DNA from: Candidatus Syntropharchaeum caldarium
GTDB lineage: Archaea; Halobacteriota; Syntropharchaeia; Syntropharchaeales; Syntropharchaeaceae
Direction of reading: 5' to 3'
Assembly (NCBI GenBank): GCA_001766815.1
Contig: LYOS01000004.1
Span: forward strand, 103,610 to 135,609
Length of the DNA: 32,000 bases
Shown: positions 1 to 20,852 of the stretch, piece by piece
Layout: the number at the start of each line of letters is the position of its first letter
Position numbering within the stretch: the stretch's first letter is position 1
Notes under the pieces: generated by a model
Told to the model about the DNA's origin: nothing
What the model saw: only the letters and a program-made list of their open reading frames with translations
Database searches by the model: none
Program-made: the position numbers and the translations under genes

Positions 1-561
1 TATGCCTTTCTTCTGGAATAACGAGGTATCAAGATAATTGCGCCCCGCAGCTCCAGAGAGATATGTATCCCCCCCTAATGCCTCAACCATCTCTACCAGC
101 CGCTCAGTGGATCTGGATGTAAAGCCTAACTCGCTGGAAAGTCCTATTTCTGTCTTTATATCAAATGCTTTTTTCAGAAAGTTTATCAGTTCCATGTTCA
201 GCTCAACCAGTTTATCATATCTTTTCTCATAAATCTTCTTCAGTTCGTCTGCATACTCGCTGTAATAAGCCGCACCCTTGTAATTGTCCTCGATATCTTT
301 GAAATGTGCATCCGCCCATCCCAATCCTTTCCATGTGCTCACTTCGTTTTTTATCCTTATCTCGTTTATCGGTAGATGTTTCTTCTCAACCGGTACTGTG
401 AGCCATTTCCAGCCATTATGTATTCTGATTCTATTGCGATGCTGGAAATCACTTTTGTTGAACTGTGCGTCATCGTAGATCACGAATAGATCTGATTTTT
501 TCATCTTGTCAAAGAATCCCAGATATGGGAGGTAATTGGGCTGGTGGATTGCGATGATCAT
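1..561 (-). CDS. WbqC-like family protein (N-terminal 187 codons; 3' end lies beyond the left window edge)
   Basis: Reverse-strand frame open from ATG at 561 to position 1. It is absent from the ORF track because no stop falls inside the window. Translation MIIAIHQPNYLPYLGFFDKMKKSDLFVIYDDAQFNKSDFQHRNRIRIHNGWKWLTVPV...LSGAAGRNYLD matches the WbqC-like N-terminal pattern (HQPNYLPxxGFF, DDxQF, RNRI, WLTVP) as I remember it. Confidence 0.75.
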   Translation of the reverse strand, partial: MIIAIHQPNYLPYLGFFDKMKKSDLFVIYDDAQFNKSDFQHRNRIRIHNGWKWLTVPVEKKHLPINEIRIKNEVSTWKGLGWADAHFKDIEDNYKGAAYYSEYADELKKIYEKRYDKLVELNMELINFLKKAFDIKTEIGLSSELGFTSRSTERLVEMVEALGGDTYLSGAAGRNYLDTSLFQKKGI

Positions 562-902
562 TTACATATTACCCATTTTGTAGCTCTTGTGAGGATGTTC
601 CGCAATTGCTTTTGGCACTAAAAAATTCGATTCTTTTTGGTTTTGAAGCCCTATTTGCATTTCTTTTCTTCCATTTTTGAATTGTTGGACAGCCTCTTGT
701 ATTTGTGAAAACTCTGTGTATAATCATCTATAAATTCCGTCATAAACTCTGTAACATCTATTTTTTTCATTAAGCAATTTCTCTTTTTTACTCTTCTAGA
801 CGTGTTTTTTTTTTGGATAAAAATACGAGTGCTTTATTTATGCCCTTACCTGACTCATCATAAATAAAAATTAGACCATACCTTTCTTCCAGAACAATAA
901 AA

Positions 903-1538
903 TTACCCATTTAACTCACCCTTTAACTCATTAATACAATGGATATCGCTACCCCTGACTAATCTAACATTATATCTTCTCGCTACACTTATCCAATTTT
1001 CTGAAGGAACACTATATTTTCCATTTATCTCGAGCAAAACCTCTTGTTTCCACATCGACTTAAAAATTTTAATTAACTCCTTTTCAGACAATTCTAAACC
1101 GTGTTTAGTTAAAAATGCCCCTGGGTGTGCCCAAGCATTAACATATCTATTTCTCAAAACACTATTTAGACTTTCTATATACATATCAATATCTTCAGGA
1201 AAAGAATGAAAGGCGAATATCGAATAATCAACTTCTTTTAAAATCCACTCTTCAACATCGAACCCCCCGTTCGGTAAAACTTTTGCTTCACATCCAGATA
1301 ATATTATTAGATTGAACTCTTCTCTTGCTTTTTCAATATCGTCTAAAAATTGATTGAAATCGTAATACACGTGATTCGTATTTTTTCTAACGTGCTCTGT
1401 AAAGGCAACTAAAGGGATTTTCAATTCTATAGCTTTTTTACAATATTCGGATACACTATTTTTGCCATCTGTATAGTTTGTGTGGATATGCCATTCTCCT
1501 TTCAATAGATAGTTGGTATACTTCTTCCAGATTTTCAT
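903..1538 (-). CDS. PHP-domain metal-dependent phosphoesterase (histidinol-phosphatase-like)
   Basis: 211-aa ORF. PHP ligand pattern is visible: WHIHTNYTDG (HxH), FTEH, SGCE, FAFH, AHPG, RGSDIH. Its ATG overlaps the stop of the upstream ATP-grasp gene (ATGA, 1535-1538). Confidence 0.8.
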   Translation of the reverse strand: MKIWKKYTNYLLKGEWHIHTNYTDGKNSVSEYCKKAIELKIPLVAFTEHVRKNTNHVYYDFNQFLDDIEKAREEFNLIILSGCEAKVLPNGGFDVEEWILKEVDYSIFAFHSFPEDIDMYIESLNSVLRNRYVNAWAHPGAFLTKHGLELSEKELIKIFKSMWKQEVLLEINGKYSVPSENWISVARRYNVRLVRGSDIHCINELKGELNG

Positions 1539-2590
1539 AATCTCCCCAAAATCGTTGCTTCATTCACTCTGATACCCCCCCAATACCTCATTATTCTTGT
1601 TCCCCACACAATATCAAACTCAGGAACTTCTTCCCCTAATGCATATTTAACCGCTCCATAAATGATGTTTGCTCCTGCAAATGTCGCCAAAACCATAGTC
1701 CCCTGGATTCTTGGATTCGATTCTAAAAGTTTTGGTACATTATTTTCGTCTAATTTAAATTGGAAACCGTAAGCATATCTTAAGTCTAGTGCTTCACTTA
1801 ATCTTTCAGAATATTCAATTATCTCTTCATTTTTCTCGACAGTTCCGTTAAAAGTTATCCCATACTTTATTAAATCTCTTTTTCTTGGAATTACTGTAAG
1901 AGACTCGGTGTTTAACACATCGACAGTATATTCCTTATTGGGTAAATATTCCATAACTAATAAGCGAGGGAATGAAGGTCCCAAAATCTCTTTTAAATTA
2001 TCCATTTTTAGGTATACTCCTGTTGGTTTCTTAGAGTAGAATATATCTTTTAAATTCATTGATTCATCGATAATTCTTAGCCCTCTCATGCCATTTGATA
2101 CAGGGGGTTTAACAACAACTCGTTTTTTAGGCCACCCCAATTCATTAGCATATTCAAGTAAATCATTAAAATTATCTGCTAAATAAAACTTAGGCGTTGG
2201 AACATCTATTTTATTTGCCGTTTTCATAAGTTTGTATTTGTTGTTTGCTATTTCTATACTATTTCTATCCGATATAGTAATTTCAGTTCCGATATTTCCA
2301 AAATCTTTTTTGTGTTCTGCTAATGCAGGTAGTTCCGCTGTATTTTGCGGTAAAAGTACATCAACGCTTTCTTTTTCACAGATATTTAACAATTGTGAGA
2401 GATACTCATTATTAGAGGGTTTTGGAATCTGGTAAAATTTGTCACATAAATATTTCCCGATAGCATCTTCTTTCATATCCGTTCCTACTGTCTTTATTTT
2501 TCTATTATCAAAGTTTTTTTCGAGTGAATATAAGGTTCCTTTTATTCCGGGAGCTCCTACCCCTGTTATTAGAACAGTTATACCATCCAT
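1535..2590 (-). CDS. ATP-grasp domain ligase (carboxylate-amine ligase type)
   Basis: 351-aa ORF. It has an N-terminal Rossmann-like pre-ATP-grasp segment (VLITGVGAPGIKG), VVVKPPVSNGMRG, and the C-terminal ESNPRIQGT (E-x-N-P-R) motif typical of ATP-grasp enzymes. It overlaps the upstream PIG-L gene by 13 nt. Confidence 0.8.
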   Translation of the reverse strand: MDGITVLITGVGAPGIKGTLYSLEKNFDNRKIKTVGTDMKEDAIGKYLCDKFYQIPKPSNNEYLSQLLNICEKESVDVLLPQNTAELPALAEHKKDFGNIGTEITISDRNSIEIANNKYKLMKTANKIDVPTPKFYLADNFNDLLEYANELGWPKKRVVVKPPVSNGMRGLRIIDESMNLKDIFYSKKPTGVYLKMDNLKEILGPSFPRLLVMEYLPNKEYTVDVLNTESLTVIPRKRDLIKYGITFNGTVEKNEEIIEYSERLSEALDLRYAYGFQFKLDENNVPKLLESNPRIQGTMVLATFAGANIIYGAVKYALGEEVPEFDIVWGTRIMRYWGGIRVNEATILGRL

Positions 2591-3207
2591 CGTATCACCT
2601 CAAAAGCCTCAGCACATTCTGAATTGCACTGAATTCCTCTTGTTTTCGCTAATCCTTGAATAAACTCTTCTGAGAAGTATGCTTTTTCTTTTGCCAATTG
2701 TGATTTATAATTTTTTAACATCTCACATTTTTTAATTATATGTTCTTTTTTTAATTTCACAAATAATTGTGTGTTAAAAGTTACATGGTTCCAAGGCAAT
2801 TCATAACAAATTATGCTTGACATCGTTTTAAATGCTCTTATCATTTCATTTGCAACTACTTGATGGTCTTGATGGAAATCATTTAGAGATGGACCGAAAA
2901 CCACCTTAGGTTTAAATTCTTCTCGTATACGTATCAAGTTCTCTAAAATTTCTTGTCTATGATCATCCAAATATCTTACTTTGAAGTTATATATCCTGTA
3001 ATTTTTTTCTTTCAAACCAAGACTTTCTACAACTCTCAAGAATTCTTTCTTTAAAGTATCCTTTGGTAAATTTTTTGGTAAGGACTCCTCAGCAGCAGAG
3101 AACACAATCCATAATATTTTATGCCTTTCTTCGATAAATTTAATTATGCTGCCCCCACAGCCTAACTCTGCATCATCTGTATGGGGGGAAAGGATCAATA
3201 TTTTCAT
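2578..3207 (-). CDS. PIG-L / LmbE family N-acetylglucosaminyl deacetylase
   Basis: 209-aa ORF. N-terminus MKILILSPHTDDAELGCGG (PHxDD zinc-site motif) and later FHQDHQ (HxxH) are the PIG-L family signature. ATGA overlap with DUF354 gene at 3204-3207. Confidence 0.85.
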   Translation of the reverse strand: MKILILSPHTDDAELGCGGSIIKFIEERHKILWIVFSAAEESLPKNLPKDTLKKEFLRVVESLGLKEKNYRIYNFKVRYLDDHRQEILENLIRIREEFKPKVVFGPSLNDFHQDHQVVANEMIRAFKTMSSIICYELPWNHVTFNTQLFVKLKKEHIIKKCEMLKNYKSQLAKEKAYFSEEFIQGLAKTRGIQCNSECAEAFEVIRWMV

Positions 3208-4289
3208 AAAGACCGCCTCAATCTGAATCTATCTTGATAATTTGGATTCTTTTTCATTATTTTTAAACTTTCTGGATAAATTTCCATAAATTTAATCATA
3301 AATGCTGTTACATCAATTTTATCTTTAAGTAACTTCTCTCTTTTTCTTTTTCCTTCCTTTTTTATATTATTTTTTTGGAGGATCTCTACAACTTTACCAA
3401 TTGCTCCATTCTCAGCATCGGAAATCCACATTAAGTCGTATTTGTTTAAGTCATAAAATATTCCACAATATTTAGCCGTTGTGGATATATGGATTGCGTG
3501 TGTTCCCAATACTGCACTCTCGGTCGCCATTGTTCCACCCTCTCCAATATACAAACTCGCATAATACAACAAATCATGTAGCTTCTCTGGCGAGATTTTG
3601 ATCTTGTACTTCTCCAGTTTCGTATTCAACACCCCTTCTGAAGTAATAAGCACCCGCCCGTATTTATCCAGTTTCCGCACCAATTCCATCTTGTTTTTGA
3701 TGCCGTGTTGGCATATATCATGCGTTGCCCCCCACGAAACAAAACGCAGGATAATGAAGTTATCATCCCTTCTCAACCCCAGATCATCCAAAACAGATGG
3801 ATCGGGTTTAAAATAATTTGGATGTAAATATGCGAGTTCGTAATAACCATTAAAACGAACATGTTTCTTTCCAAAATCTCTCATGTAACAATCAGGGGTT
3901 ACCACAGCATCAGTGAACGGCAAACAAATTTTCTGGGCTACTGTAGCATGTTCTGTATCCTCAAATATAATAAAAGGTTTATTTAAAACAGCACTAACAT
4001 GCGCTAAATGTGGCAACGCACGACCAACAAAAATATCTGGCTTAAATTCTTTGGCAATCCTGTAAGTACGATATTCCCATCCCAGGAGTGCGATTCCTTT
4101 CCTGTAAAGTCCTTGCTGGTTCACCCCGATCAAGGTATAGGGCATGTTAAATCGTTCAAGCAAGTATTCTGTAATCTCTTTCTCCACCGCAACTATTTTA
4201 ACCTCATGTCCTTCATTCATTAAGTTATCAACTGTATTCTTGAAGAGAAGGACGTGTTTTGGGTGGTTAACACCGACTAATATTTTCAT
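3204..4289 (-). CDS. DUF354 family protein (GT-B-fold, putative glycosyltransferase or 2-epimerase-like)
   Basis: 361-aa ORF. MKILVGVNHPKHVLLFKNTVDNLMNEGHEV at the N-terminus and GEGGTMATESAVLGTHAI near the C-terminus resemble DUF354 / MurG-epimerase-like GT-B proteins. Assignment is from memory of the family. Confidence 0.65.
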   Translation of the reverse strand: MKILVGVNHPKHVLLFKNTVDNLMNEGHEVKIVAVEKEITEYLLERFNMPYTLIGVNQQGLYRKGIALLGWEYRTYRIAKEFKPDIFVGRALPHLAHVSAVLNKPFIIFEDTEHATVAQKICLPFTDAVVTPDCYMRDFGKKHVRFNGYYELAYLHPNYFKPDPSVLDDLGLRRDDNFIILRFVSWGATHDICQHGIKNKMELVRKLDKYGRVLITSEGVLNTKLEKYKIKISPEKLHDLLYYASLYIGEGGTMATESAVLGTHAIHISTTAKYCGIFYDLNKYDLMWISDAENGAIGKVVEILQKNNIKKEGKRKREKLLKDKIDVTAFMIKFMEIYPESLKIMKKNPNYQDRFRLRRSL

Positions 4290-4305
4290 TTTTGTTTTAC
4301 CTCAC

Positions 4306-5466
4306 TTAAAGAAGTTTTTCGATACATGCCAGTTGATAGTTTGCGATCTCTTCCCAATCGTATTTTGATAACACTTCTTTTGCATCTTCTACTACTTTCC
4401 TGTGTTCTTCTTCATTTTCAAGAATATCAAGGACCTTCTCAGCCATATTTTCAGAGTTGCCTGTTTCAGCGGTAATGATGTATTCATTAAATATCTCCTG
4501 ATAAATCGGTAGGTCGTATCCTACTACTGGTAATCCACATGCCAGCGCCTCAAGAATTACTACTGGCTGTGCCTCCTGATAACTCGGATAGACGAATACT
4601 CTCGATTCTTTCATCAATCTGTATTTTTCTTCACCTTCTTTCCAGCCTTCAATTTTTATATTCTCGCTTAGCCCCTTTTCTTTTATCTTTTTCTCCAATT
4701 CGCCTCTTTCCGGACCGTCTCCTATTATACAAAGTTTCATAGAGGGTTCTCTCTCCACAACAAAACCCCAAATATCTACAAGGTCATAGATACCTTTATT
4801 CCAAACTAACCGTCCAAGAAATACGCCTTCATATTTTTTGATTTTAACATCAACGTTCTCAATTTCGTTACAGGGGATGCCATTATTTACCACAACTACC
4901 TTTTCCAATGGAAAACCTGTTTCAATAAAATAATCCCTTGTAGCTTCGTTCACCACAAAAATCAGGTCAAAAGATCTGGCTAAGAAGACGCATAGCTTCC
5001 AATTCATTATAGAAATTGTTCTGCGTAAAAAATTCATCTTTTTAAGAACTTCGAACCTCGCCGATGGTGGTACAACATGAAAATATACCACTCTTTTTGC
5101 CTTTCCCTTCATAAACATACAGGGTATCATGTTCTGTGGTAGATAATTTGGAGCGGTGACGACATCATACTTCTCTTTAAGTTTTCGGAGTTCCATGATG
5201 CTTTTTATCGTTCTGAAAAGATAATTTAAATACCTGTTCTTACTCTCATCAAAAGGTGCTGTGTATAAAATCACTTCTTTATTGAGATTTGGATCCTTTT
5301 GAATATGCGATTCTGCCACTTTATACCCGGCCTTTGAGATGAAAAAATGCACTTTATTCGAGGTTGACCAGTAATTCGCAACTTCAACGATATGCCGACT
5401 ACCGCCCCCAATGACACCTACGAGTGAATTAAAAATTACTAAAATCTTCAGTTTCTTCTCTGACAT
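4306..5466 (-). CDS. Glycosyltransferase family 4 (GT-B, retaining)
   Basis: 386-aa ORF. C-terminal half has the GT4 pattern: FLGRLVWNKGIYDLV, IIGDGPERGELE, VFVYPSYQEAQPVVILEALACGLPVVGYD (E-x7-E). Confidence 0.85.
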   Translation of the reverse strand: MSEKKLKILVIFNSLVGVIGGGSRHIVEVANYWSTSNKVHFFISKAGYKVAESHIQKDPNLNKEVILYTAPFDESKNRYLNYLFRTIKSIMELRKLKEKYDVVTAPNYLPQNMIPCMFMKGKAKRVVYFHVVPPSARFEVLKKMNFLRRTISIMNWKLCVFLARSFDLIFVVNEATRDYFIETGFPLEKVVVVNNGIPCNEIENVDVKIKKYEGVFLGRLVWNKGIYDLVDIWGFVVEREPSMKLCIIGDGPERGELEKKIKEKGLSENIKIEGWKEGEEKYRLMKESRVFVYPSYQEAQPVVILEALACGLPVVGYDLPIYQEIFNEYIITAETGNSENMAEKVLDILENEEEHRKVVEDAKEVLSKYDWEEIANYQLACIEKLL

Positions 5467-5476
5467 ATATTTATCA

Positions 5477-6640
5477 CTAAGCTCCCTGATTTCTTCTCAA
5501 TAGTTCCTTCATATTTGTATAAGCAAAGAACATCATTGGTAATGGATCTTTACAGGATATGATATCGTCAGACATTATTCCATCAAAATTTAAAAAATCC
5601 TTAAGGATTTGTACACGATTATTTGAATGCCTGAGATGGCTAAAGAGTGCTCGTAGATCGTTCATCAAAAACCTTGTTCTGACCCCTAATTTATAGTTAA
5701 GAACGGGTGTTATATCTCCTTCTGTAGCCATCTTATATAGAAGATATGGAAAATCAACCCCTGCTGTGATCGCTTGATTTATCGAACCCCAGAATCTCGG
5801 GTTTACCTCTATCAAAACTGGTTTATTAGTCCGTTTATCCAGCTTGAACTCGACCATCGCGACACCATGCCAGTCTATGTATTCCAACAATTTGATTGCG
5901 ATTTCCTCCATCTCCGGATGCCTCACGCTTTCTCTGAATGTGCTTGGACCCCCTGTGATAGGATATTCCCTCAAACGCTTGTGGGTGAACAAAGCTCTAA
6001 GATCGCCCTGATTGAACAAGACTGATACGCCATATCCATCACCCGGAATAAATTCTTGAATAAGAGGATAACATGAAGGATCGAGATTATAGTCCAGGAT
6101 AGACTGTTTATAGTTGTAGATGAATTCATCCTTTGAATTTACATACTGGATACCCATGCTGCTTGTAGCATCTTTTAACTTGAGTACAGCAGGATATTCA
6201 ATCATCTCTGCAATATTTCTAATTTCTCTAACATCTTTGACAGTACAGGTTTTAGGTGTGGGTAAGCCAAGTTCTGTTGCGATCTTCACCAGCTGATCTT
6301 TGTTATGCAGTTGTAGCATTTTAGGGTGGTCTGCAAATGGTATTTTTGTGTATAACTCAAGTTTGTTCTTGTGCATAGCTATTAGAAGTGTTTCAGTGCT
6401 ATTTATTGGCATCAGAACTTCGATTTTTCTCTTTTTAACTTCTTTTTCTATTACGTTCTTAAATTCAAGAGGTGATTTTGTGGGAGAAGGACATACAAAG
6501 TGACTTTTGGAGTATTTTGAGAAAAAAGCAGCAGAAAATTGTTCGCAGTCAGTGGTTGTAACTTCGATATCTCTTCTACCCAGACTTCTGGTAATAACCA
6601 GAGCCTTTGCACCACTTGCACTTGTAACTAGTACACTCAT
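5477..6640 (-). CDS. ATP-grasp domain ligase (second, divergent copy)
   Basis: 387-aa ORF. VLVTSASGAKALVITRSLG pre-ATP-grasp, YPAVLKLKDATSSMG, GVAMVEFK, and LIEVNPRFWGS (E-x-N-P-R). ATGA overlap with upstream PHP gene at 6637-6640. Confidence 0.8.
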   Translation of the reverse strand: MSVLVTSASGAKALVITRSLGRRDIEVTTTDCEQFSAAFFSKYSKSHFVCPSPTKSPLEFKNVIEKEVKKRKIEVLMPINSTETLLIAMHKNKLELYTKIPFADHPKMLQLHNKDQLVKIATELGLPTPKTCTVKDVREIRNIAEMIEYPAVLKLKDATSSMGIQYVNSKDEFIYNYKQSILDYNLDPSCYPLIQEFIPGDGYGVSVLFNQGDLRALFTHKRLREYPITGGPSTFRESVRHPEMEEIAIKLLEYIDWHGVAMVEFKLDKRTNKPVLIEVNPRFWGSINQAITAGVDFPYLLYKMATEGDITPVLNYKLGVRTRFLMNDLRALFSHLRHSNNRVQILKDFLNFDGIMSDDIISCKDPLPMMFFAYTNMKELLRRNQGA

Positions 6641-7353
6641 TTTGACCTTTTATTTAGAACTTTATTAATGCACGACTTCACGAAACCCACTGTGCCATCT
6701 CTTTTAATCTTTCCTATGCCCACGCTCATCATTCTGAGATGATGGGGCGCCTCACTCCCTGCTATACTAACTTCACCCTTCAGCAAACACGCTTTAATGC
6801 TATCAAAGACTAAATCATTTTCCTCAATGATTGTTTGTGCTTGCCCGATCTCAAAGTAAGTATGCGCATCACTTCCAGCGATTATTGGTACCTCAAATTT
6901 TTTTGCTGATACCTGCGCTTTTTGATTAAGTTTTTTAGCAGTCCTTGCATTCAATCCCTCTACCAAATCAACCTTTTTTAACAGATCTTCCGGGTTACAC
7001 AGTCTATTTCGATAAGGGTGTGGCAGAACAGTTATTCCATCCTGATCTTTTATTTCTTCAATCACCTCAGCAAATTCACCTGATTTAATTTCTTCACTCA
7101 GGAACAAACCAATCACTTCACCCTTATCAGTTTTTATTTCAGCCCCTACAATCACCATAAAATCCCCATCAGGTACGGCCGATTTTGTTTTTATCGCTCC
7201 TTTGATGGTATTATGGTCAGTAACTGCTATGCCAGAAAGCCCTTTCTTTTTTGCTATTTTAATGATTCTTTCTGGTTTTAAGATCGAGTCCTGTGAGTAT
7301 ATACTATGTATATGGAGGTCAAAGATGCTTGGAGAATCAGTTATATCAATCAT
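6637..7353 (-). CDS. PHP-domain metal-dependent phosphoesterase (second, divergent copy)
   Basis: 238-aa ORF. FDLHIHSIYSQD (HxH), IAVTDHNT, VGAEIKT, LPHPY, AGSDAHT are PHP metal-ligand motifs. It overlaps the upstream deacetylase gene by 8 nt. Confidence 0.8.
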   Translation of the reverse strand: MIDITDSPSIFDLHIHSIYSQDSILKPERIIKIAKKKGLSGIAVTDHNTIKGAIKTKSAVPDGDFMVIVGAEIKTDKGEVIGLFLSEEIKSGEFAEVIEEIKDQDGITVLPHPYRNRLCNPEDLLKKVDLVEGLNARTAKKLNQKAQVSAKKFEVPIIAGSDAHTYFEIGQAQTIIEENDLVFDSIKACLLKGEVSIAGSEAPHHLRMMSVGIGKIKRDGTVGFVKSCINKVLNKRSK

Positions 7354-8116
7354 GAAAACTCGTTCTATACTTTACGATTCCTGCTTTACCGACGTTTTTC
7401 ACATTCTGCCATATCAGATCCTTCACCCAGCTACCAAAATTATCACTCCATCGCTCTGGGTGCGTTGAAATACATATCTGTTCTGATACCTCATTTTTTA
7501 ACAGATCGATAACATCATCTGTGGATTTAACCTGATAAATAGACTCTACACCCACAACATCTTTCACACTATACTTTGAGCTGTTCCAGGTTCTGCCAGT
7601 GTCTGTTAAATAAAGAACCTTTTCATAGTCAATTGAAAGATAAGGCTCTCCTATAATGTCAAAATCTTTGAAATTATACTTTTTCCATAAATCACGATTA
7701 TCCCATGAAGATAACGGATTTCCATGCATACATATCGTTTTAAGATCACACAGTTTTCTGAACTCTTTTAACTCGTCCTCAAAGATCTTTATCGCTTTTT
7801 TAAAATCGCCTTTCGCTCTGTCCAATACTTCATAATGGTAACCAATCTCATGTCCAGAATCATTTATAGCCCGGATAATATCTGGCTTGAAGACATCGGA
7901 TACTGTTCTGAAGTAGTAAGTAGATGATATCCCGTGATCTTTTTCGATCTCTGCCACCTTCATTGCCTGTTCAGGTTTCCTATCCACATCATGACGTAAA
8001 ATCACGCACTTCTGCTGTTGATCTTCCAGAAAGGTGCGGACACTCATTGGTATGTAATCAGAATCTACAATCGCTTTACATAACTTGTTATATTTTTCGA
8101 GCGTGAAGTCCAGCAT
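7346..8116 (-). CDS. Polysaccharide deacetylase-like (CE4-type, DVD subgroup) protein
   Basis: 256-aa ORF. ILRHDVDRKPE followed by HGISSTYYFR and SGHEIGYHYE resembles the R-x-DVD plus G-x-H-x-x-H layout of ArnD-like/CE4 deacetylases. Recognised by motif only. Confidence 0.65.
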   Translation of the reverse strand: MLDFTLEKYNKLCKAIVDSDYIPMSVRTFLEDQQQKCVILRHDVDRKPEQAMKVAEIEKDHGISSTYYFRTVSDVFKPDIIRAINDSGHEIGYHYEVLDRAKGDFKKAIKIFEDELKEFRKLCDLKTICMHGNPLSSWDNRDLWKKYNFKDFDIIGEPYLSIDYEKVLYLTDTGRTWNSSKYSVKDVVGVESIYQVKSTDDVIDLLKNEVSEQICISTHPERWSDNFGSWVKDLIWQNVKNVGKAGIVKYRTSFHD

Positions 8117-8121
8117 AAAAA

Positions 8122-8469
8122 CTATTCACTTCGTCCAAGGTAGAATATGTAGTCTGGGTCCTTCAGCCATGCCCTTAACGATGGTGCCCACTCAAAGACA
8201 CGATTCTTTTCACAGATGTCTGACATTTTTTCCGCTCGCTTCAATCCGTGCCTGAAAATCCGTGTTCCTACAGTCTCTACCAACCTATCCATAAGCACAG
8301 AAAGCTTGTTCACAACCAGATCGTTCACTATCTCACCTTGAGCACGGGCATACCACATCGAAGCTCTGTATAACGCCTTCTCCAGTCGATTGAGTTTACG
8401 CCAGTTACCGTTTCTAAACCCACGTCTGAATTTTTGGAAGATCTCCTGGTGTGTGAACTTTTTACACAT
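8122..8469 (-). CDS. Hypothetical basic, predicted alpha-helical protein (115 aa), first gene of the minus-strand operon
   Basis: Intact ATG ORF 5 nt upstream of the deacetylase gene. No family recognised. TATA-like box about 25 nt upstream of its ATG. Confidence 0.5.
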   Translation of the reverse strand: MCKKFTHQEIFQKFRRGFRNGNWRKLNRLEKALYRASMWYARAQGEIVNDLVVNKLSVLMDRLVETVGTRIFRHGLKRAEKMSDICEKNRVFEWAPSLRAWLKDPDYIFYLGRSE

Positions 8470-8488
8470 ATCACATATTTTATTTCAA

Positions 8489-8500
8489 ATATATATAAAC
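8489..8500 (-). promoter_or_regulatory. Candidate archaeal TATA box (GTTTATATATAT on minus strand) for the 8469->1 operon
   Basis: A/T box centred about 25 nt upstream of the ATG at 8469 and preceded by an A-run (BRE-like). The spacing implies a leaderless or near-leaderless transcript. Sequence pattern only. Confidence 0.35.
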
Positions 8501-8616
8501 TTTTTTCAAGTCGTCAATAAACTTTACACTGGTTATAGAAATATCTGACATATCACTAAACTTTGCAATACAGCGTGGCGGTAGCTTTATGAAAAGGAAA
8601 GATTATATAGACAGTA

Positions 8617-9411
8617 ATGGATATAATTCAATCAATTCTTCTGGGTTTGATTCAGGGCATCGCAGAATGGCTTCCGATAAGTAGCGAGGGCCAGTCCATG
8701 CTCTTCATGATGGAAATTTTAAGGCTCTCTCCTGTGGAAGCATTTTCGATTGCAATCTTTCTCCATCTTGGAACTACACTTGCCGTTATCCTGAAGTTCA
8801 GAGCTGAATTTCTTGAGATCCTGAGGTGGCGGATAACATCTAATCCCATTCTTCTTAAAATAATCATCATCTCAACGCTTGCAACTGGAATAACTGGTGT
8901 TCCACTTTTCTTTCTCATAAAAGGTTTCAGTCATGGGGATATCTTCACACTTTTAATAGGCGGTATGCTCATACTCACAGGAATTCTTCTAAGAACTCAA
9001 GACTCAAAGGATGAGGGGTATAAACGAATCGAAGATATGAAAATCCGTGATATGCTGTTTTTAGGTCTTGCTCAGGGGTTTTCTATCCTCCCTGGTGTAT
9101 CAAGGTCTGGAACAACAATAACTTTCTTGCTCCTTGATCGAATGAGACAGGAAGATACACTGAAAGTATCTTTCCTGATCAGCGTCCCTGCCGTGCTGGG
9201 GGCTGTTACATTGAACCTTGTTACATCATCTGGAGAGGTGATTCCATTTTCCGTTACCAACGCGCTTGTCATGATCACTGTCGCTTTTCTCGCAGGATAT
9301 GCCACGATAGACCTTCTCATGAGATCTGCCAGGCATCTGAACTTCTCAAAGTTCTGTATCATCCTTGGCTTTCTGACCATCGTTGTTACGGTCTTCCCGT
9401 GGATTGTCTAA
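8617..9411 (+). CDS. uppP: Undecaprenyl/dolichyl-diphosphate phosphatase (UppP/BacA family)
   Basis: 264-aa polytopic membrane ORF. GLIQGIAEWLPISSEGQ (E-x-LP-x-SS-x-G motif) and LPGVSRSGTTIT (PG-x-SRSG) are the two UppP signature motifs. Confidence 0.9.
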   Translation: MDIIQSILLGLIQGIAEWLPISSEGQSMLFMMEILRLSPVEAFSIAIFLHLGTTLAVILKFRAEFLEILRWRITSNPILLKIIIISTLATGITGVPLFFLIKGFSHGDIFTLLIGGMLILTGILLRTQDSKDEGYKRIEDMKIRDMLFLGLAQGFSILPGVSRSGTTITFLLLDRMRQEDTLKVSFLISVPAVLGAVTLNLVTSSGEVIPFSVTNALVMITVAFLAGYATIDLLMRSARHLNFSKFCIILGFLTIVVTVFPWIV

Positions 9412-9448: not shown

Positions 9449-9958
9449 TCACCTGTGACGCCTGTCAAAGAAGATGAAGAGTCCAATTACCGCTGCAAGT
9501 GGTAGTGCGATCGTTGAGAATTCTGGGATTTCTTCTGTATTCTCTAAGTTTTGTTCCGTATCATCAGTCTGTGTTGATGCTGGTGTTGACGTTGGGGATT
9601 GAGTAAAAGTGGGAGTGGGCGTCGGTGTTGGGGTTGCAGTTGCCGTTGAATCGAAACTACCACCGCCTCCACCACCACCTGCGCCACCGTTTAGCCGTAA
9701 AAGAGGTAGATCTGCGCTCGTTGGTTCTCCATCCTCAGTCCCTCCTTCACCATTTGCCTCGCTATTTTCACCTGCAGGTGTAGGAGTAGGTGTTGGGGTA
9801 CTATCATCTACTGTTATCCCAATTCCCCCAATGCCTCCTGTTGTATCCTCGACGGATGGGGCAGGATTTAAACCCCATGATAAAACAAATACCACAAAAA
9901 ACAGGATGATAATTACAAGAAGGATTGCTATATGCTTTGGTTTTATATTCTCTTTCAT
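9449..9958 (-). CDS. PEF-CTERM archaeosortase-target protein, Thr/Pro- and Gly-rich, no globular domain
   Basis: 169 aa. It has an N-terminal signal/anchor helix (HIAILLVIIILFFVVFVLSW), TPTPTPTP runs, GGAGGGGGGGS, and a C-terminal tripartite signal: PEF (9518-9526), hydrophobic helix STIALPLAAVIGLFIFF, then DRRHR. SD-like GGAGGT lies 7 nt upstream of the ATG. Confidence 0.75.
   Translation of the reverse strand: MKENIKPKHIAILLVIIILFFVVFVLSWGLNPAPSVEDTTGGIGGIGITVDDSTPTPTPTPAGENSEANGEGGTEDGEPTSADLPLLRLNGGAGGGGGGGSFDSTATATPTPTPTPTFTQSPTSTPASTQTDDTEQNLENTEEIPEFSTIALPLAAVIGLFIFFDRRHR
9575..9649 (-). repeat. Imperfect ACN-CCN (Thr-Pro) tandem codon repeat inside the PEF-CTERM gene
   Basis: Encodes STATATPTPTPTPTFTQSPTSTPAS. 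A shorter run lies at 9776-9802 and a Gly10 tract at 9659-9688. Confidence 0.8.
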
Positions 9959-10420: not shown

Positions 10421-11074
10421 TTATTCATTCATCGATGTGTATCGTTGAAGCACCCTTAAATAAATCTCCTCATGCAACCCATCAAATTCTCTTGTGGCAT
10501 CTATTACGGGTATATTTAAAGATTCTGCGATCTGTAAGTAAGCTTTTCTGTGAATTTTCAGATAATCGATTGCATTATCAGATTCTTTAATATTCACCGA
10601 ATCTTTTGTATCGTCCTTGCGAAGATCCGAGACTTCTTCTGGAACATCCAGCATAAAAGTAAGATCAGGCTCTGGGATAAGCTTGAGAAGAATTTTTGAC
10701 GCCTTTTCATTGTATAACCCATCATACATGAGGTCTGCTATCATGTCATAAACGTATCGATCACAGACGACGTTCTTACCTATGAGAAGAGGAATCTTGA
10801 CCTTAAAGAGATAAATGCAGAGGAAATCGAAGATTACAATATAATTCCAGATTTTTCGTAATATCCTGCTTTTATGGTAGTCTTTTCTCCTGTACCTTCC
10901 TGTTACAAGATAGATAAAAGCCATTAGTGGCAGAGTGATTTTTGGATCCCAGTTACACCAGACATACTGAGAGGGAATGCCCATGCTCTTGAATCGCTCA
11001 ACGATCTTTGTTGCGTGCGTGGTCTTGCCGGTACCGTCTATTCCGGTGAAGCAGATTGTAATGCTTTTTTCAAT
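10421..11074 (-). pseudogene. Thymidylate-kinase-like P-loop protein with hydrophobic insert; start codon lost at the IS junction
   Basis: The frame reads IEKSITICFTGIDGTGKTTHATKIVERFKSMGIPSQYVW... (GxDGxGKTT P-loop, later DRYVYD). It is open from 11074 but preceded in frame by TGA AAT GAG TTC, which is IS sequence, with no ATG/GTG/TTG. The first in-frame ATG (10984, the ORF-track start) lies after the P-loop. Confidence 0.6.
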
Positions 11075-11090
11075 GAACTCATTTCAAAAC
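11075..11090. repeat. IS terminal inverted repeat (left in window coordinates)
   Basis: GAACTCATTTCAAAAC compared with the reverse complement of 11761-11776 (GAACCCATTTCAAAAC): 15 of 16 positions identical. Confidence 0.65.
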
Positions 11091-11709
11091 CCTCAGCACC
11101 ATCCTGATACATGCCAAATTGACAATTCCCATAAAACACACCGCCAGCCGCTCGAACCTCACCAGTATCCTCTTGAATGACTCGATCCAGGCGTTAAATC
11201 ACTCCACTGCACTCCTGTTTTTCATATAACCATCCTTATCCAGCCTTGTTGGTCTTCCCGCTTGGGAAACTTCCTGTTTCTTTTATTAACAGGAATATTT
11301 GACTTTATACCCCTCTTTCTTAGATAATCCCCTATCTCATCCGAATCATAGGCAGGATCTGCATTCACCTCATAAGGGGGATTGCATCCCCTCTACCCCT
11401 GCGTCCTACCTGCGGTAGGACTAGTCTGACTGAAAGTCGGACATTGGGTGCATGAGGCGGATGCGCTTTATCCTGGAGAATTATATCCCACACACCCTCT
11501 TCCTCCCATCTCTTCAGCCTTCTCCATGTGGTGACATAAGATCCATATTCTCCTGGCATATCCATCCATCTGCATCCTGTTGTGAGGACGTAGAGGATGG
11601 CGTTGAGCGTTTTTTTATCGTCTGCCCTCGGTCTTCCTGTCGGGGCAGGTGGTGGAAGTAGTGGTTCGATGAGTTCCCATTCTTTCTCAGTCAATTCCTC
11701 AAATTTCAT
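11079..11709 (-). pseudogene. IS5-family transposase remnants (N-terminal helix-turn-helix part plus broken C-terminal DDE part)
   Basis: N-terminus MKFEELTEKEWELIEPLLPPPAPTGRPRADDKKTLNAILYVLTTGCRWMDMPGEYGSYVTTWRRLKRWEEEGVW. Downstream reads ADPAYDSDEIGDYLRKRGIKSNIPVNKRNRK, then a frameshift to GRPTRLDKDGYMKNRSAVE-TGA-FNAWIESFKRILVRFERLAVCF. The conserved V-E-R codon is a TGA. The central catalytic region (about 80-90 aa) is missing. Confidence 0.7.
11377..11442. repeat. Cluster of three adjacent short hairpins at the IS deletion junction
   Basis: GGGGAT-TGC-ATCCCC (11377-11391). GTCCTACC-TGC-GGTAGGAC (11403-11421, perfect 8-bp stem). GTCTGAC-TGAAA-GTCGGAC (11424-11442, 7-bp stem with one T:G pair on the plus strand). 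Confidence 0.7.
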
Positions 11710-11736
11710 ACCATCCCCTCAGATGATGTTAGTTTG

Positions 11737-12136
11737 TTATTGAGGGGACCTTATATAAATGTTTTGAAATGGGTTCTCTATTAAAATACCTATGATACCT
11801 GTGATATTTAATCTGTAGTTTCTGGCTATTCTTCTCGCCTCGTAATCATCCAATAGAATTATATCCGCTAATTCTTCTAAAGCAAGGGTTATCGTCTCTG
11901 CTTCTCCTTCATCTAAAACCATTGTAAGAGCCTTATTAAGGTTTTTATCCTTTATCCTTATCACTTTTATCCATTCCGCCTTTTCGATATTTTTCGCATC
12001 TTCTCTACCCTTTCCTCCCAGTCACACATTCTTTGTATACAGCCTCTGGCACGATTATTTCTCCAGAAAAGTGTTTTAATAGTTCCAAACGACCTATTTT
12101 GGCTAAGTGTATCAGCGGTGATGAATCACTTACCAC
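11737..12136 (-). pseudogene. DUF3368 (PIN-like) toxin gene, frameshifted and 3'-truncated by the IS
   Basis: A GTG at 12136 overlaps the UPF0175 stop by 11 nt. Frame 1 reads MVSDSSPLIHLAKIGRLELLKHFSGEIIVPEAVYKECVTGRKG then TAG (12005-12007). The sequence continues one frame over as GKGREDAKNIEKAEWIKVIRIKDKNLNKALTMVLDEGEAETITLALEELADIILLDDYEARRIARNYRLNITGIIGILIE. It then runs into the IS inverted repeat (NPFQNIYIRSPQ*). The 400-nt span is not a multiple of 3. Confidence 0.65.
11761..11776. repeat. IS terminal inverted repeat (right in window coordinates)
   Basis: See the partner repeat at 11075-11090. Confidence 0.65.
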
Positions 12137-12389
12137 TTTTGGCAAAAGTTAAATCCTCCTCTAATTCTTTTTCTGTATAGTGTCTCGTAATTTTTCTCTC
12201 CCCTAATACCTCTATAAATTCCCATTTGCCCATCTCAGCCAGCTTTCTTGCTTTACCCATTGAAATAATACCCCTTTGGTATAAAGCAATGGCTAATTCG
12301 AGCTTTAATACCTTCTCTGTATCCTCTTCAGGTATTTTTAGCGTTGTTAATACATCCTCAGGTATGCTCAGCGATTTCATGCCCATCAC
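12126..12389 (-). CDS. UPF0175 family antitoxin-like protein
   Basis: 87 aa. SIPEDVLTTLKIPEEDTEKVLKLELAIALYQRGIISMGKARKLAEMGKWEFIEVLGERKI matches the UPF0175 pattern (LAIxLYxxGxISxGKAxxLAxxxxxEF). It lies immediately upstream of, and overlapping, the DUF3368 gene. Confidence 0.75.
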   Translation of the reverse strand: MMGMKSLSIPEDVLTTLKIPEEDTEKVLKLELAIALYQRGIISMGKARKLAEMGKWEFIEVLGERKITRHYTEKELEEDLTFAKSGK

Positions 12390-12391
12390 CT

Positions 12392-13177
12392 TTATTTAGT
12401 CACAAACTCTCCCAACCGATATATTCTCCTCCCAACCCCATATATCAACTCGTGTTGCACCCTGTAATCCAGTACCCCCCTTTTGCATGCTTCGATGCAG
12501 ACCATACAGCCGATACATTCTTTCTCATCTATAATATTAACTTTGCCATCCTCTATACCGATATTTCCTATCGGGCAGCTCAGAGCACAGCTCTCACATC
12601 CTGTGCAGCGCTCTTCAAACTTCGGATATGGGATCTTCCTGAAGAACTCTTCCATCAGATAAGAGAGCAGATATGATCTGAATGATGGAATTCTTGGCGG
12701 CATCTCAAAGCGCCTCTTTACATTCTCTATCGATTCACCAGAAACTTCATAGTTTTCCATCTCACCAAATCCAAACCCACTTGCAAGCATGATATGCCTG
12801 ATCCTCTGAGGTTTATAGCCCATGATCCGAACCGATGCAGCATCAACCGCGACAGGATCAGTGCCAGCAATGATCAGATCCATCTTAACAGGATTTCCAT
12901 TTGCAGGACCAAGTCTGCCTTCAAGGGCGTAGATGCCATCGATAACTGATACCATGCGCTTATTCTCTGTAAGATAAGAAAATACATCGAGAATTGTCTT
13001 TTCTATCCCCATTATATGTCCTGCCATCCTCTCCCTCTTTAGAATACATCCTAAAAGATTCTTTATCCCAAGTGAAACGCCTGTCTCACTGTGTGTCTTC
13101 ATCTTGGCAACGTTTATGATAAGATCACAGTCCATAACCGTCTTTGGCAGGTGAAAACGCTTCAGAGCCAGCTTCAA
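12392..13177 (-). CDS. DUF362 domain protein with C-terminal 2x[4Fe-4S] ferredoxin domain; apparently 5'-truncated
   Basis: 261 aa from a TTG start. NVAKMKTHSETGVSLGIKNLLG (DUF362 K-x-K-T-H motif) sits only 25 residues from the start, whereas I recall it about 100+ residues in. C-terminal CTGCESCALSCP and CIGCMVCIEACK. An in-frame stop lies 2 codons upstream of the TTG. Confidence 0.6.
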   Translation of the reverse strand: MKLALKRFHLPKTVMDCDLIINVAKMKTHSETGVSLGIKNLLGCILKRERMAGHIMGIEKTILDVFSYLTENKRMVSVIDGIYALEGRLGPANGNPVKMDLIIAGTDPVAVDAASVRIMGYKPQRIRHIMLASGFGFGEMENYEVSGESIENVKRRFEMPPRIPSFRSYLLSYLMEEFFRKIPYPKFEERCTGCESCALSCPIGNIGIEDGKVNIIDEKECIGCMVCIEACKRGVLDYRVQHELIYGVGRRIYRLGEFVTK

Positions 13178-13194
13178 GGGTGATCAGAGATTAA

Positions 13195-13204
13195 CTTTAT
13201 ATAG
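13195..13204 (+). promoter_or_regulatory. Candidate TATA box (CTTTATATAG) for the 13233-24063 operon
   Basis: Centred about 33 nt upstream of ATG 13233, in the 55-bp gap between divergent genes. Pattern only. Confidence 0.35.
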
Positions 13205-13232
13205 TTCACGGAAAAGAGAGGATGTGATATAA

Positions 13233-14099
13233 ATGAGTTCTGACGGGATAAGTATAATAGGTTCTGGTTGGGTTGGTGTAGCGATTGGAAAGGGTTTTTC
13301 TAGGCTTGGATTTAATGTAATATTCTATGATGTGGTTGAGAAGGATCTGCCGAACTTCACCACAGATATTGAGTATGCGGTTGAGAACTCGGAGATCTCT
13401 TTTATCGCCGTCCCGACACCCTCAACCCCGGAGGGGATCGATCTGAGCTATATAAAAAACGCTGTTGAAAATATCGGGAAGATGCTTAAAAACAAAGATA
13501 AGTTCCACCTTGTGGTCGTGAAGAGCACGGTTGTTCCTACAACGACGGAGAAAGTGGTGATACCTATCCTTGAAGAGCGGTCCGGGCAGAGAGTGGGAGT
13601 GGGTTTTGGGGTTTGTATGAATCCTGAGTTTCTAACAGAGATTGCGTCAACGTGGAGTGAGGAAGAAAGTGCTAAGAGGGATTTTTTCAGTGAGGATCGG
13701 ATCGTCATTGGTGAATACGATAGGAGGTCAGGAGATATCCTGGAGGAGATCTATAAACCGCTGAATAAACCGATTTTTAGAACAGATCTGAAGACCGCGG
13801 AGATAATAAAGTATGCCTCCAACTGTATGCTTGCAACGAAGATCTCCTACTGGAATGAGATCTTCATGATCTGCAAAGAACTTGGCATCGACTCACAGAT
13901 CGTTGCAGAGATCGTTGCCCTTGATCCCCGGATTGGGAAGTACGGAACGGTTCATGGCAAAGCGTTCGGTGGCAAATGCCTTCCCAAGGACCTGAAGGCT
14001 TTCATCTCTTTTGCTGATAAGTATCATAAGGTGAAGCTTCTTAAAGCGGTGGATGAGATAAACGAGGAGATAGGAGATAGGTTTGGGGTGAGGGAGTGA
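13233..14099 (+). CDS. UDP-glucose/GDP-mannose dehydrogenase family protein, short form lacking the C-terminal UDP-binding domain
   Basis: 288 aa. IIGSGWVGVAIG (NAD Rossmann), AVPTPS, NPEFL, TAEIIKYASNCMLATKISYWNE, catalytic-Cys motif FGGKCLPKD. The ORF ends right after the central domain (AVDEINEE...). Its stop overlaps the GTG start of galU (GTGA). Confidence 0.8.
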   Translation: MSSDGISIIGSGWVGVAIGKGFSRLGFNVIFYDVVEKDLPNFTTDIEYAVENSEISFIAVPTPSTPEGIDLSYIKNAVENIGKMLKNKDKFHLVVVKSTVVPTTTEKVVIPILEERSGQRVGVGFGVCMNPEFLTEIASTWSEEESAKRDFFSEDRIVIGEYDRRSGDILEEIYKPLNKPIFRTDLKTAEIIKYASNCMLATKISYWNEIFMICKELGIDSQIVAEIVALDPRIGKYGTVHGKAFGGKCLPKDLKAFISFADKYHKVKLLKAVDEINEEIGDRFGVRE

Positions 14100-17759: not shown

Positions 17760-17773
17760 GGAAGGTGGGTTGA

Positions 17774-18142: not shown

Positions 18143-18146
18143 TGCA

Positions 18147-19796: not shown

Positions 19797-19815
19797 TATT
19801 GGAGGTTGTCGAAGA

Positions 19816-20847: not shown

Positions 20848-20852
20848 TTCGG

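Follow-up and report, generated by a model that had tools for sequence, protein, structure and literature searches.

Two parallel deacetylase, ATP-grasp and PHP gene sets with a hybrid DUF354 gene in an archaeal surface-glycan operon are predicted to exchange N-acyl groups of amino sugars

The 32,000-nucleotide (nt) stretch of contig LYOS01000004.1 (assembly GCA_001766815.1, positions 103,610 to 135,609, forward strand) from Candidatus Syntropharchaeum caldarium, here called the window, carries on its minus strand a compact operon (8469-903) in which two sets of genes for a de-N-acetylase, an ATP-grasp ligase and a PHP-type phosphoesterase are combined with a gene of the family DUF354. Because each gene set recurs in the same order and with the same overlaps in distant archaea and bacteria, the arrangement is, judged by gene order, far beyond chance. 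We propose that each of the resulting tetrads de-N-acetylates an amino sugar, re-acylates it via an acyl-phosphate and removes a phosphate, a prediction to which we give an even chance. Tailoring of glycans by deacetylation and re-acylation is known already; new is the enzyme combination used here, which appears to be unprecedented. In family, PDB and literature searches the gene set had no characterised homologue, curated family name or solved structure, and literature searches by keyword gave nothing relevant and no functional paper on WbqC.

The operon consists of nine open reading frames (ORFs). A 115-amino-acid (aa) ORF without family is the first gene (8122-8469, minus strand like all genes of the operon; higher GC content, 0.45) and lies 5 nt upstream of the gene for a CE4-type de-N-acetylase of a distinct family (7346-8116). 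It is followed by genes for PHP2, a CehA/McbA-like phosphoesterase with PHP and PHP_C domains (6637-7353), for ATP-grasp carboxylate-amine ligase 2 (5477-6640), a GT4 glycosyltransferase (4306-5466), a hybrid DUF354 protein with GT-B fold (3204-4289), a PIG-L/LmbE-type de-N-acetylase (2578-3207), ATP-grasp carboxylate-amine ligase 1 with a PylC-like N domain (1535-2590) and the PolX-PHP/HisJ-like phosphoesterase PHP1 (903-1538). The eight junctions have spacings of 5, -8, -4, 10, 16, -4, -13 and -4 nt; read on the minus strand, the overlaps are ATGA at three junctions and ATGGATGGTATAA and ATGATTGA at the other two. A gap of 341 nt (562-902) separates the PHP1 gene from a partial WbqC-like gene (561-1), which the window edge truncates. 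A short contig that is identical to the window (L001; L numbers denote fetched loci) has the WbqC gene (223 aa) followed, past window position 1, by a second PIG-L gene (204 aa). A preliminary description of the window had given the same coordinates, including those of the partial WbqC gene, and the same overlap strings, all of which agree with the ORF listing and with our re-reading, but its count of eight genes between 8469 and 903 has to be raised to nine by the 115-aa ORF. No transmembrane segments were predicted in any of the ten operon proteins, and Rfam gave no RNA families in the window.

The domain assignments of the preliminary description were confirmed by Pfam for all proteins except the CE4-like one. 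The E-values are 1e-12 for PHP1, 7e-34 (ATPgrasp_Ter) and 2e-17 (PylC-like_N) for ATP-grasp 1, 8e-18 for PIG-L, 3e-23 for DUF354, 1e-32 for GT4, 8e-13 (ATP-grasp_3) and 4e-12 (ATPgrasp_Ter) for ATP-grasp 2, 3e-12 (PHP) and 3e-11 (PHP_C) for PHP2 and 4e-58 for WbqC. The CE4-like protein reaches 18.6 bits with Polysacc_deac_1, under the cut-off of 23.1; its motifs RHDVD, HEIGYH, R70, H131 and H219-P220 are invariant in a 14-member alignment of its family. The catalytic motifs of the PHP, PIG-L and ATP-grasp proteins are intact. Both PHP proteins (49.1 and 47.6 bits, cut-off 26.4) retain their motifs (HIH/DIH and HIH/DAH), and their relatives in the PDB are the PHP domain of PolX for PHP1 and the phosphoesterase group of 3e0f for PHP2. 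The PIG-L protein (65.6 bits, cut-off 28.2) has the zinc motifs PHTDD and HQDH. The two ATP-grasp proteins lie above the Pfam cut-offs and contain the Mg/ATP motifs ESNPR and EVNPR, the latter in ATP-grasp 2. In line with the preliminary description, they stand outside primary metabolism, since the models of CarB, PurK/PurT, Ddl, RimK/LysX and biotin carboxylase give 15-135 bits against NCBIfam cut-offs of 143-1027. An AlphaFold2 (AF2) model of ATP-grasp 1, with a predicted local distance difference test score (pLDDT) of 93, matched ATP-grasp structures at template modelling (TM) scores of 0.6-0.85 in Foldseek, in the order uncharacterised 2pn1, PurK, biotin carboxylases, PylC and the L-amino-acid ligase RizA; this search thus returned generic ATP-grasp relatives only.

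The genes of the operon belong to two cassettes that are conserved independently of each other: cassette A with the order DUF354-PIG-L-ATP-grasp 1-PHP1, and cassette B with the order CE4-like-PHP2-ATP-grasp 2-GT4-DUF354-WbqC-PIG-L. The proteins of the ATP-grasp 1 family are 60-79% identical across Methanosarcina, Methanofollis, Methanoculleus, Methanothrix, Methanoregula, Methanolobus and Methanomicrobium. In Methanosarcina mazei and Methanofollis formosanus, cassette A is a four-gene unit with start/stop overlaps as in the window, without GT4 or the second set; in M. mazei (locus L003) it lies at about 3,229,000-3,232,400 of CP187260.1. The same order is found in Methanoculleus and a Pirellulales bacterium, and a rearranged one in metagenome-assembled genomes (MAGs) of Thermoanaerobacteraceae and Saccharibacteria; in the loci seen, PHP1 always adjoins ATP-grasp 1. 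ATP-grasp 2 has its own separate family. The full order of cassette B occurs in Methanolobus sp. ZRKC5 and on two metagenomic contigs, with variants in Methanoperedens, Archaeoglobus, another Methanolobus and a Chloroflexota MAG. PHP2 adjoins ATP-grasp 2 in nine of the ten loci with visible flanks, GT4 is kept between ATP-grasp 2 and DUF354 in L007, L010, L017 and L091, and the WbqC and PIG-L pair recurs in nine loci (L007, L010, L013, L014, L020, L022, L034, L039, L091). The window is thus a cassette B with PIG-L-ATP-grasp 1-PHP1 inserted between DUF354 and WbqC; in other arrangements A and B co-reside in L010, L091 and L092. In two places group II intron reverse transcriptase/maturase genes or fragments adjoin cassettes (M. 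mazei, L003 13441-14611; Methanolobus, L007 4141-5673), insertions that are consistent with glycan islands as recombination hot spots.

This comparison changes the earlier picture of two triads bracketing a common core of DUF354 and GT4. DUF354 belongs to each of the two cassettes, which makes them tetrads, whereas GT4 is part of cassette B only, as are WbqC and the second PIG-L gene. The earlier view of the two modules as parallel and non-orthologous, and not as the outcome of a tandem duplication, is strengthened, since family and context are conserved separately for each module. Our alignments also bear out the statement that paired genes have only motifs in common: the ATP-grasps are 28% identical (E 1e-19), and the PHP proteins have no significant BLASTP match to each other. 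The preliminary description would have abandoned its reading for ATP-grasp proteins of primary-metabolism families with no conserved linkage to their neighbours; the order of ATP-grasp, PHP and deacetylase genes is conserved elsewhere.

The DUF354 gene of the window is itself composed of parts of both types. Its residues 1-150 are 53% identical to B-type and 38% to A-type proteins, whereas residues 200-345 are 55% identical to A-type and 45% to B-type proteins. All five nearest neighbours of the N-terminal half are genes in B context and the nearest two of the C-terminal half are in A context; in neighbour-joining trees of the half-genes, the N-terminal half is placed among B types and the C-terminal half within the A clade. 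In a column bootstrap the similarity to B exceeded that to A in a fraction of 1.000 of the N-half replicates and 0.000 of the C-half replicates, and a flip like that of the window was seen in no archaeal reference DUF354 gene. The spacer at 562-902 holds a frameshifted remnant of a displaced DUF354 3' end (699-910, minus strand; residues ~279-350). It is visible in tblastn as two colinear, frameshifted high-scoring segment pairs to residues ~279-309 and ~321-350 (37 and 40 bits, 55-57% identity; shuffle maximum 26.9 bits), and its peptide KKIDVTEFMTEFIDDY aligns with the family consensus DKIDVTxFMVxFIENYPES. Neither the intact DUF354 gene of the window nor the A-type genes gave a match to the remnant, and no comparable one was found 3' of PHP1 in five other loci. 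The A-derived genes have a GC content of 0.32-0.34 compared with 0.37-0.38, while GC along the DUF354 gene is too noisy to place the crossover. Because of the hybrid DUF354, the remnant and the lower GC of the A segment, the simplest reading of the window architecture is a recombinant mosaic of cassettes A and B. A segment of DUF354 (C-terminal part)-PIG-L-ATP-grasp 1-PHP1 would have replaced most of a resident cassette-B DUF354 gene, and the splice would have left one hybrid DUF354 and the orphaned old 3' end as a pseudogene scar.

A relative with the same hybrid was found in locus L093, whose DUF354 is 71% identical to that of the window, shows the same discordance of the N- and C-terminal halves and is its sister. 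Since the two sister genes share this discordance, the hybrid, as judged from these alignments, predates the split of the window and L093 lineages and was then retained. The A-side genes of window and L093 are 74-79% and the B-side genes 48-57% identical, a difference that points to further exchange. The gene order in L093 is WbpE (DegT)-WbpB (GFO/IDH)-WbpD (hexapeptide)-WbpA (UDP-sugar dehydrogenase)-GT2-CE4-like-PHP2-ATP-grasp 2-DUF354-PIG-L-ATP-grasp 1-PHP1, with nearly all genes overlapping or at most 5 nt apart, and the Wbp genes form a complete pathway to UDP-2,3-diacetamido-2,3-dideoxy-glucuronate. Just 3' of PHP1, L093 has a 109-aa ORF (11095-11424) that weakly resembles ATP-grasp 2 (30% over 89 aa, E 1e-6) and may be another recombination remnant. 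Farther downstream (13618-16851) lie a PDH-E1-alpha fragment and genes for an FslC/LysA-like pyridoxal phosphate (PLP) decarboxylase, an IlvE-type aminotransferase and an HpcH/HpaI-like protein, enzymes that may make the acid or amine that is ligated; the decarboxylase also matches the model of an exosortase-A-associated decarboxylase.

The wider setting of DUF354 was obtained from a scan of species-representative genomes that gave 570 confirmed relatives, of which 80 loci were analysed (Methanosarcinales, Methanomicrobiales, Methanocellales, Archaeoglobus, Altiarchaeales, Syntrophoarchaeum butanivorans and several bacterial phyla). Neighbours within 6 kb were clustered, and the clusters were named by Pfam and NCBIfam. 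Deacetylases are frequent, with CE4-like proteins of the window type in 33 loci (often overlapping DUF354), VimE-like CE4 proteins in 28 and PIG-L proteins in 17; the VimE-like family (cl4) overlaps the DUF354 stop, its best NCBIfam match being the UDP-2,3-diacetamido-2,3-dideoxy-glucuronate deacetylase VimE (4e-30, under the cut-off). Genes for installing or activating acyl groups are of the FemAB/Acetyltransf_6 type (pepcterm_femAB-like, VimA-like) in 41 loci, for PaaK/F390-synthetase-like adenylating enzymes in 15, for ATP-grasp in 14 and for WbqC in eight. Other partners are GT4 (45 loci), UDP-sugar dehydrogenase (27), hexapeptide acetyltransferase (27), DegT (11), Asn synthase (9) and WbuX amidotransferase (9), and GT2 and flippase genes are also present. 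In Ca. Syntrophoarchaeum butanivorans (L013 9953-14915) the order is DUF354-PIG-L-WbqC-VimE-like-FemAB-like, without ATP-grasp or PHP. These are two adjacent pairs of a deacetylase and a putative acyl-installing enzyme, an arrangement that suggests WbqC-like proteins as the N-acyl-installing partners of PIG-L.

The CE4-like family of the window is also found fused or adjacent to GT2 proteins whose best matches are AglJ, PpgS and ArnC, all below cut-off. GT2-CE4 fusions of 507-570 aa, in which an AglJ/PpgS-like GT2 is joined to a CE4 domain of the window CE4-like or the pepcterm_polyde type, occur in L009 (7943-9466), L026 (6270-7979), L029, L077 and L085. Their architecture suggests deacetylation of polyprenyl-phosphate-linked N-acetylhexosamine (HexNAc).

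Based on these contexts, we propose the following chemistry. DUF354, or an AglJ/PpgS-like GT2, would place or handle an N-acetylated amino sugar on the cytoplasmic side, probably a HexNAc or a 2,3-diacetamido uronic acid in nucleotide- or polyprenyl-phosphate-linked form. The deacetylase, PIG-L in A and the CE4-type enzyme in B, would expose the amine, and the ATP-grasp enzyme would activate a carboxylic acid as acyl-phosphate and link it as an amide to the freed amine. The assignment of the ligase's nucleophile to the deacetylase follows from the coupling of the two enzymes in two non-orthologous versions, and the use of a phosphorylated partner is suggested because a PHP enzyme accompanies each ligase. 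PHP would strip the phosphate, most plausibly from the incoming acid (for example O-phosphoserine or 3-phosphoglycerate) or from the acceptor as in mycothiol synthesis; this step is a guess and the model's weakest point. If the WbqC/PIG-L pair is counted, the operon has three deacetylases and three candidate acyl-installing enzymes, and the two sets together with this third pair might give distinct acyl groups to the several N-acetyl positions, or to the several residues, of a single surface glycan. The kinship of ATP-grasp 1 to the amino-acid ligases PylC and RizA by fold and domain speaks for the proposal. The installation of a non-acetyl N-acyl or amide-linked group had been suggested in the preliminary description; this chemistry is a prediction, and it gains support from the context, namely the wealth of deacetylase and acyl-installer pairs in DUF354 loci, the Wbp genes and the joining of both sets in L093.

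DUF354 has been described in the literature solely as a predicted glycosyltransferase with catalytic residues not conserved (PMC4520260). The protein of the window belongs to this family (PF04007) with 82.8 bits at a cut-off of 22, and neither single-sequence nor profile searches found sequence relatives in the PDB. Its AF2 model (pLDDT 91.5) matched GT-B structures in Foldseek at a probability of 1.0 and TM scores of 0.6-0.67 overall, UDP-GlcNAc 2-epimerases (top 1f6d, TM 0.65-0.67, 13-14% identity) being about equal to GT1/MurG transferases. A match to Epimerase_2 was not obtained in Pfam, NCBIfam or PDB sequence searches. Residues H9, D85, D111/E113, H156, R182, H190/D191 and E257 of DUF354 are invariant. 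In L092 a GT4 gene occupies the usual slot of DUF354 ahead of PIG-L-ATP-grasp 1, and in L009 a true Epimerase_2 gene adjoins DUF354. Because of this displacement by GT4, the separate epimerase and the common logic of transfer followed by deacetylation, a transferase that places the sugar is the more likely role for DUF354, compared with an epimerase.

Several points weigh against the proposed deacetylation and re-acylation. Substrate, donor, product and biochemistry are predicted from genes alone, and we infer co-transcription of the operon from the gene overlaps only. ATP-grasp N-acylation needs no phosphatase, and both PHP types most resemble nucleotide-acting phosphoesterases. The DUF354 fold resembles 2-epimerases as much as transferases. 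WbpB, WbpE and WbpD genes are absent from the 32-kb window, so that the sugar may differ from that of L093. The CE4-like protein is not a VimE orthologue, as none of the 14 members of its family matched VimE (NCBIfam NF053580) at E<=0.01, and hhalign of the family with the VimE-like CE4 group gave a probability of 87.5% over 40 columns only.

An unlikely alternative, in our estimation, is a pathway of the Campylobacter type, in which the ATP-grasp enzyme couples the C-6 carboxylate of a uronic acid to a phospho-amine (ethanolamine-P, serinol-P or phospho-amino-alcohols), PHP dephosphorylates and the deacetylases act independently. Threonine is amide-linked to uronic acids in N-glycans of Methanococcus, which counts for C-6 amidation, as do the UDP-sugar dehydrogenases adjoining many cassettes and, downstream in L093, a PLP decarboxylase and an aminotransferase of the classes that make the phospho-amines of C. 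jejuni; this aminotransferase, however, scores above cut-off as an ordinary IlvE. The pairing of ATP-grasp and phosphatase is exactly that of Cj1438C and Cj1435 (PMC11800379), but the ligases here are ATPgrasp_Ter/PylC-like and not TupA-like (no ATPgrasp_TupA match in Pfam at E<=0.01; both proteins stand-alone, without GT2 fusion), and the phosphatases are PHP and not HAD enzymes. C-6 amidation leaves unexplained the translational coupling of both non-orthologous ATP-grasp/PHP pairs to a de-N-acetylase and DUF354.

Very unlikely is a route to a small molecule or a lipid head group resembling the synthesis of mycothiol, bacillithiol or glycosylphosphatidylinositol (GPI), in which DUF354 transfers N-acetylglucosamine (GlcNAc) to a phosphorylated acceptor such as inositol-P or glycerol-P and, after dephosphorylation by PHP and deacetylation by PIG-L, the ATP-grasp enzyme attaches an amino acid, giving an aminoacyl-GlcN-X metabolite or a modified glucosaminyl-archaetidylinositol. 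The enzyme classes of cassette A, which behaves as a self-contained four-gene unit, do map one-to-one on MshA, a phosphatase, MshB and MshC (PMC7278568), and the best NCBIfam matches are BshB1, BshB2 and MshB for the PIG-L proteins and BshA for GT4. All Bsh/Msh matches are nevertheless far under the equivalog cut-offs (51 and 96 bits for BshB/MshB, cut-off 182.5), BshC/MshC were not found in the window, and a Cys-ligase-type enzyme is not present. Moreover, the cassettes are always located within surface-glycan islands with GT2, GT4, Wzx flippases and sugar-nucleotide enzymes, and in L093 they share one operon with the Wbp pathway. Homologues of the ATP-grasp proteins are annotated in the source records as 'carbamoyl-phosphate synthase large subunit' or 'D-alanine--D-alanine ligase', yet ordinary primary metabolism (CarB-, PurK-, Ddl- or RimK-like), or a chance clustering of the genes, has next to no probability. 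NCBIfam scores of 20-135 bits stand against cut-offs of 143-1027, and both the order of the genes and their start/stop overlaps recur in different archaeal orders and in bacteria, so that both variants are effectively refuted by model scores and conserved gene order.

If the proposed deacetylation and re-acylation is true, the combination of DUF354, deacetylase, ATP-grasp and PHP represents a widespread, uncharacterised diversification of amino-sugar N-acyl groups in surface glycans, shared by methanogens, archaea that oxidise methane or alkanes, and several bacterial phyla. It would give a first functional context for DUF354, with its 570 relatives in one scan, and for WbqC-like proteins, and hosts whose glycans have never been analysed would be expected to contain sugars with unusual N-acyl groups, possibly hydroxy-acyl or aminoacyl ones. 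The presence of cassette A in the genetically tractable M. mazei makes the hypothesis directly testable. The hybrid DUF354 and its scar would be a clean example of operon assembly by recombination inside a shared gene.

Upstream of the operon, the divergent intergenic region (8470-8616, minus strand) contains a candidate operon promoter with a purine-rich stretch followed by TTTATATATATTT ~25 nt 5' of the first ATG (at 8469), which was assigned by eye as a B recognition element (BRE)/TATA-like element. The 115-aa ORF behind it is probably lineage-specific; among the fetched loci its sole homologue is in Ca. Syntrophoarchaeum butanivorans (L013). The same region of 147 nt would serve as common promoter region for a divergent BacA/UppP polyprenyl-diphosphate phosphatase gene (8617-9411, plus strand; Pfam 2.4e-49). 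Outside the operon, the window is taken up by a large surface-glycan island, whose genes encode UppP, a Thr/Pro-rich protein of the PEF-CTERM type, enzymes for sugar nucleotides, GT2/PMT_2 systems, a Wzx flippase and several GT4s. On the plus strand at 17052-24063 lie genes for a GT2 similar to AglJ/dolichyl-phosphate-hexose transferases, a 122-aa ORF, two PMT_2 (GT-C) proteins and a GT2-LPG_synthase_TM fusion, a layout that resembles three-component (GtrB/GtrA/GT-C-like) systems of lipid-linked sugar transfer. The region 10421-14099 looks decayed or rearranged: a thymidylate kinase (TMK)-like ORF (10421-10984) matches only the C-terminal part of its profile, an insertion sequence (IS)-type transposase fragment lies at 11365-11709, a DUF362/ferredoxin ORF (12392-13177) covers profile positions 87-199 of 200 only, and a UDP-sugar dehydrogenase ORF (13233-14099) is without the C-terminal UDP-binding domain. 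The TMK-like gene was considered as a member of the system and rejected, as it gave no phmmer match to the TMK-like gene inside a Methanoperedens cassette. Near the window edge, another UDP-sugar dehydrogenase ORF (31310-31987, minus strand) has the central and C-terminal domains only and is N-truncated or interrupted.

About 1 kb 5' of the operon and on the same strand, a gene at 9449-9958 encodes a protein of 169 aa. This protein has a hydrophobic segment at its N terminus and linkers rich in TPTPTP, and its C-terminal tail, ...EEIPEFSTIALPLAAVIGLFIFFDRRHR, resembles the PEF-CTERM sorting signal of archaeosortases. No archaeosortase gene is present in the window. In two other loci, genes for an archaeosortase (Exosortase_EpsH) and an M48 peptidase lie just 5' of cassette B (L007 1260-2087, L010 6927-7751), and in Methanoperedens the gene immediately 5' of the CE4-like gene encodes a PEF-CTERM_ARCH protein (L008 7735-8340). 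By analogy with the product of the Porphyromonas Wbp/Vim pathway, but with ATP-grasp enzymes, the cassettes could build an amine-bearing 'linking sugar', to which an archaeosortase would amide-link the C-termini of PEF-CTERM surface proteins. This idea, which we consider very doubtful, would identify the long-unknown acceptor of archaeosortase/exosortase-type sorting; the association was found in only four of ~12 ATP-grasp loci.

Parallels to parts of the proposed pathway exist in several known systems. ArnC makes undecaprenyl-phosphate-linked 4-deoxy-4-formamido-arabinose (Und-P-Ara4FN), which is deformylated by the CE4-type enzyme ArnD. The fusion or adjacency of the window CE4-like family to GT2s similar to polyprenyl-phosphate sugar synthases (below cut-off) recalls ArnC/ArnD and PpgS, although a relation to the deformylase or to ArnT is lacking here and those systems are without re-acylation by ATP-grasp. 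The reaction classes of mycothiol synthesis are the four of cassette A (PMC7278568), namely GlcNAc transfer by a GT-B enzyme, dephosphorylation, PIG-L de-N-acetylation and ATP-dependent ligation of an amino acid, classes that are also shared with bacillithiol synthesis. In contrast to these pathways, DUF354 stands in the place of GT4, ATP-grasp in that of the Cys-tRNA-synthetase-like or BshC ligase and PHP in that of the phosphatase, and the cassettes are located in a surface-glycan island and not in a redox-thiol setting.

The Campylobacter precedent for an ATP-grasp enzyme acting together with a phosphatase, which the preliminary description had cited, is real (PMC11800379). In C. jejuni HS:2 the TupA-like ATP-grasp Cj1438C joins glucuronic acid in an amide bond to serinol-P or ethanolamine-P, whose phosphate is cleaved off by the HAD phosphatase Cj1435 (PMC11800379). 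This is the only characterised glycan-tailoring pair of ATP-grasp and phosphatase, and in it, too, a phosphorylated building block is ligated and then dephosphorylated. It differs in that the ligase is fused to a GT2, the carboxylate of the sugar is activated and a deacetylase is not involved, whereas the operon described here has obligate deacetylase partners, ATPgrasp_Ter/PylC-like ligases and PHP enzymes.

A further parallel is the Wbp/Vim pathway of Porphyromonas gingivalis and Tannerella forsythia, in which WbpA, WbpB, WbpE and WbpD make di-N-acetyl-glucuronic acid, the CE4 enzyme VimE removes the N-2 acetyl group, the FemAB-like VimA adds Ser or Gly and VimF acts as GT4 (PMC7468200). WbpS also belongs to the pathway, its product is a sugar amide-linked to the C-termini of type IX secretion system (T9SS) cargo, and homologues of vimA and vimE have been noted in exosortase loci (PMC7468200). 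The window itself lacks DegT, GFO-IDH, hexapeptide acetyltransferase and FemAB-like genes and is not a member of the Wbp/Vim system; L093 is also without VimA. The two window-type sets use ATP-grasp ligases without a FemAB/VimA-type enzyme, set A has PIG-L as its deacetylase, and the described pathway has nothing that corresponds to DUF354 or to the PHP phosphoesterases. The proposed logic is nevertheless the same, with an N-acetylated amino-uronic acid, cytoplasmic deacetylation, an amino acid on the freed amine and transfer by GT4, although here it is put forward from gene content. Generally, DUF354 loci carry VimE-like, FemAB/VimA-like, GT4, Wbp and AsnB genes, and L093 joins both window-type sets to WbpA, WbpB, WbpE and WbpD. 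If our proposal is true, the deacetylate-then-aminoacylate logic of the Wbp/Vim pathway extends to ATP-dependent ligases.

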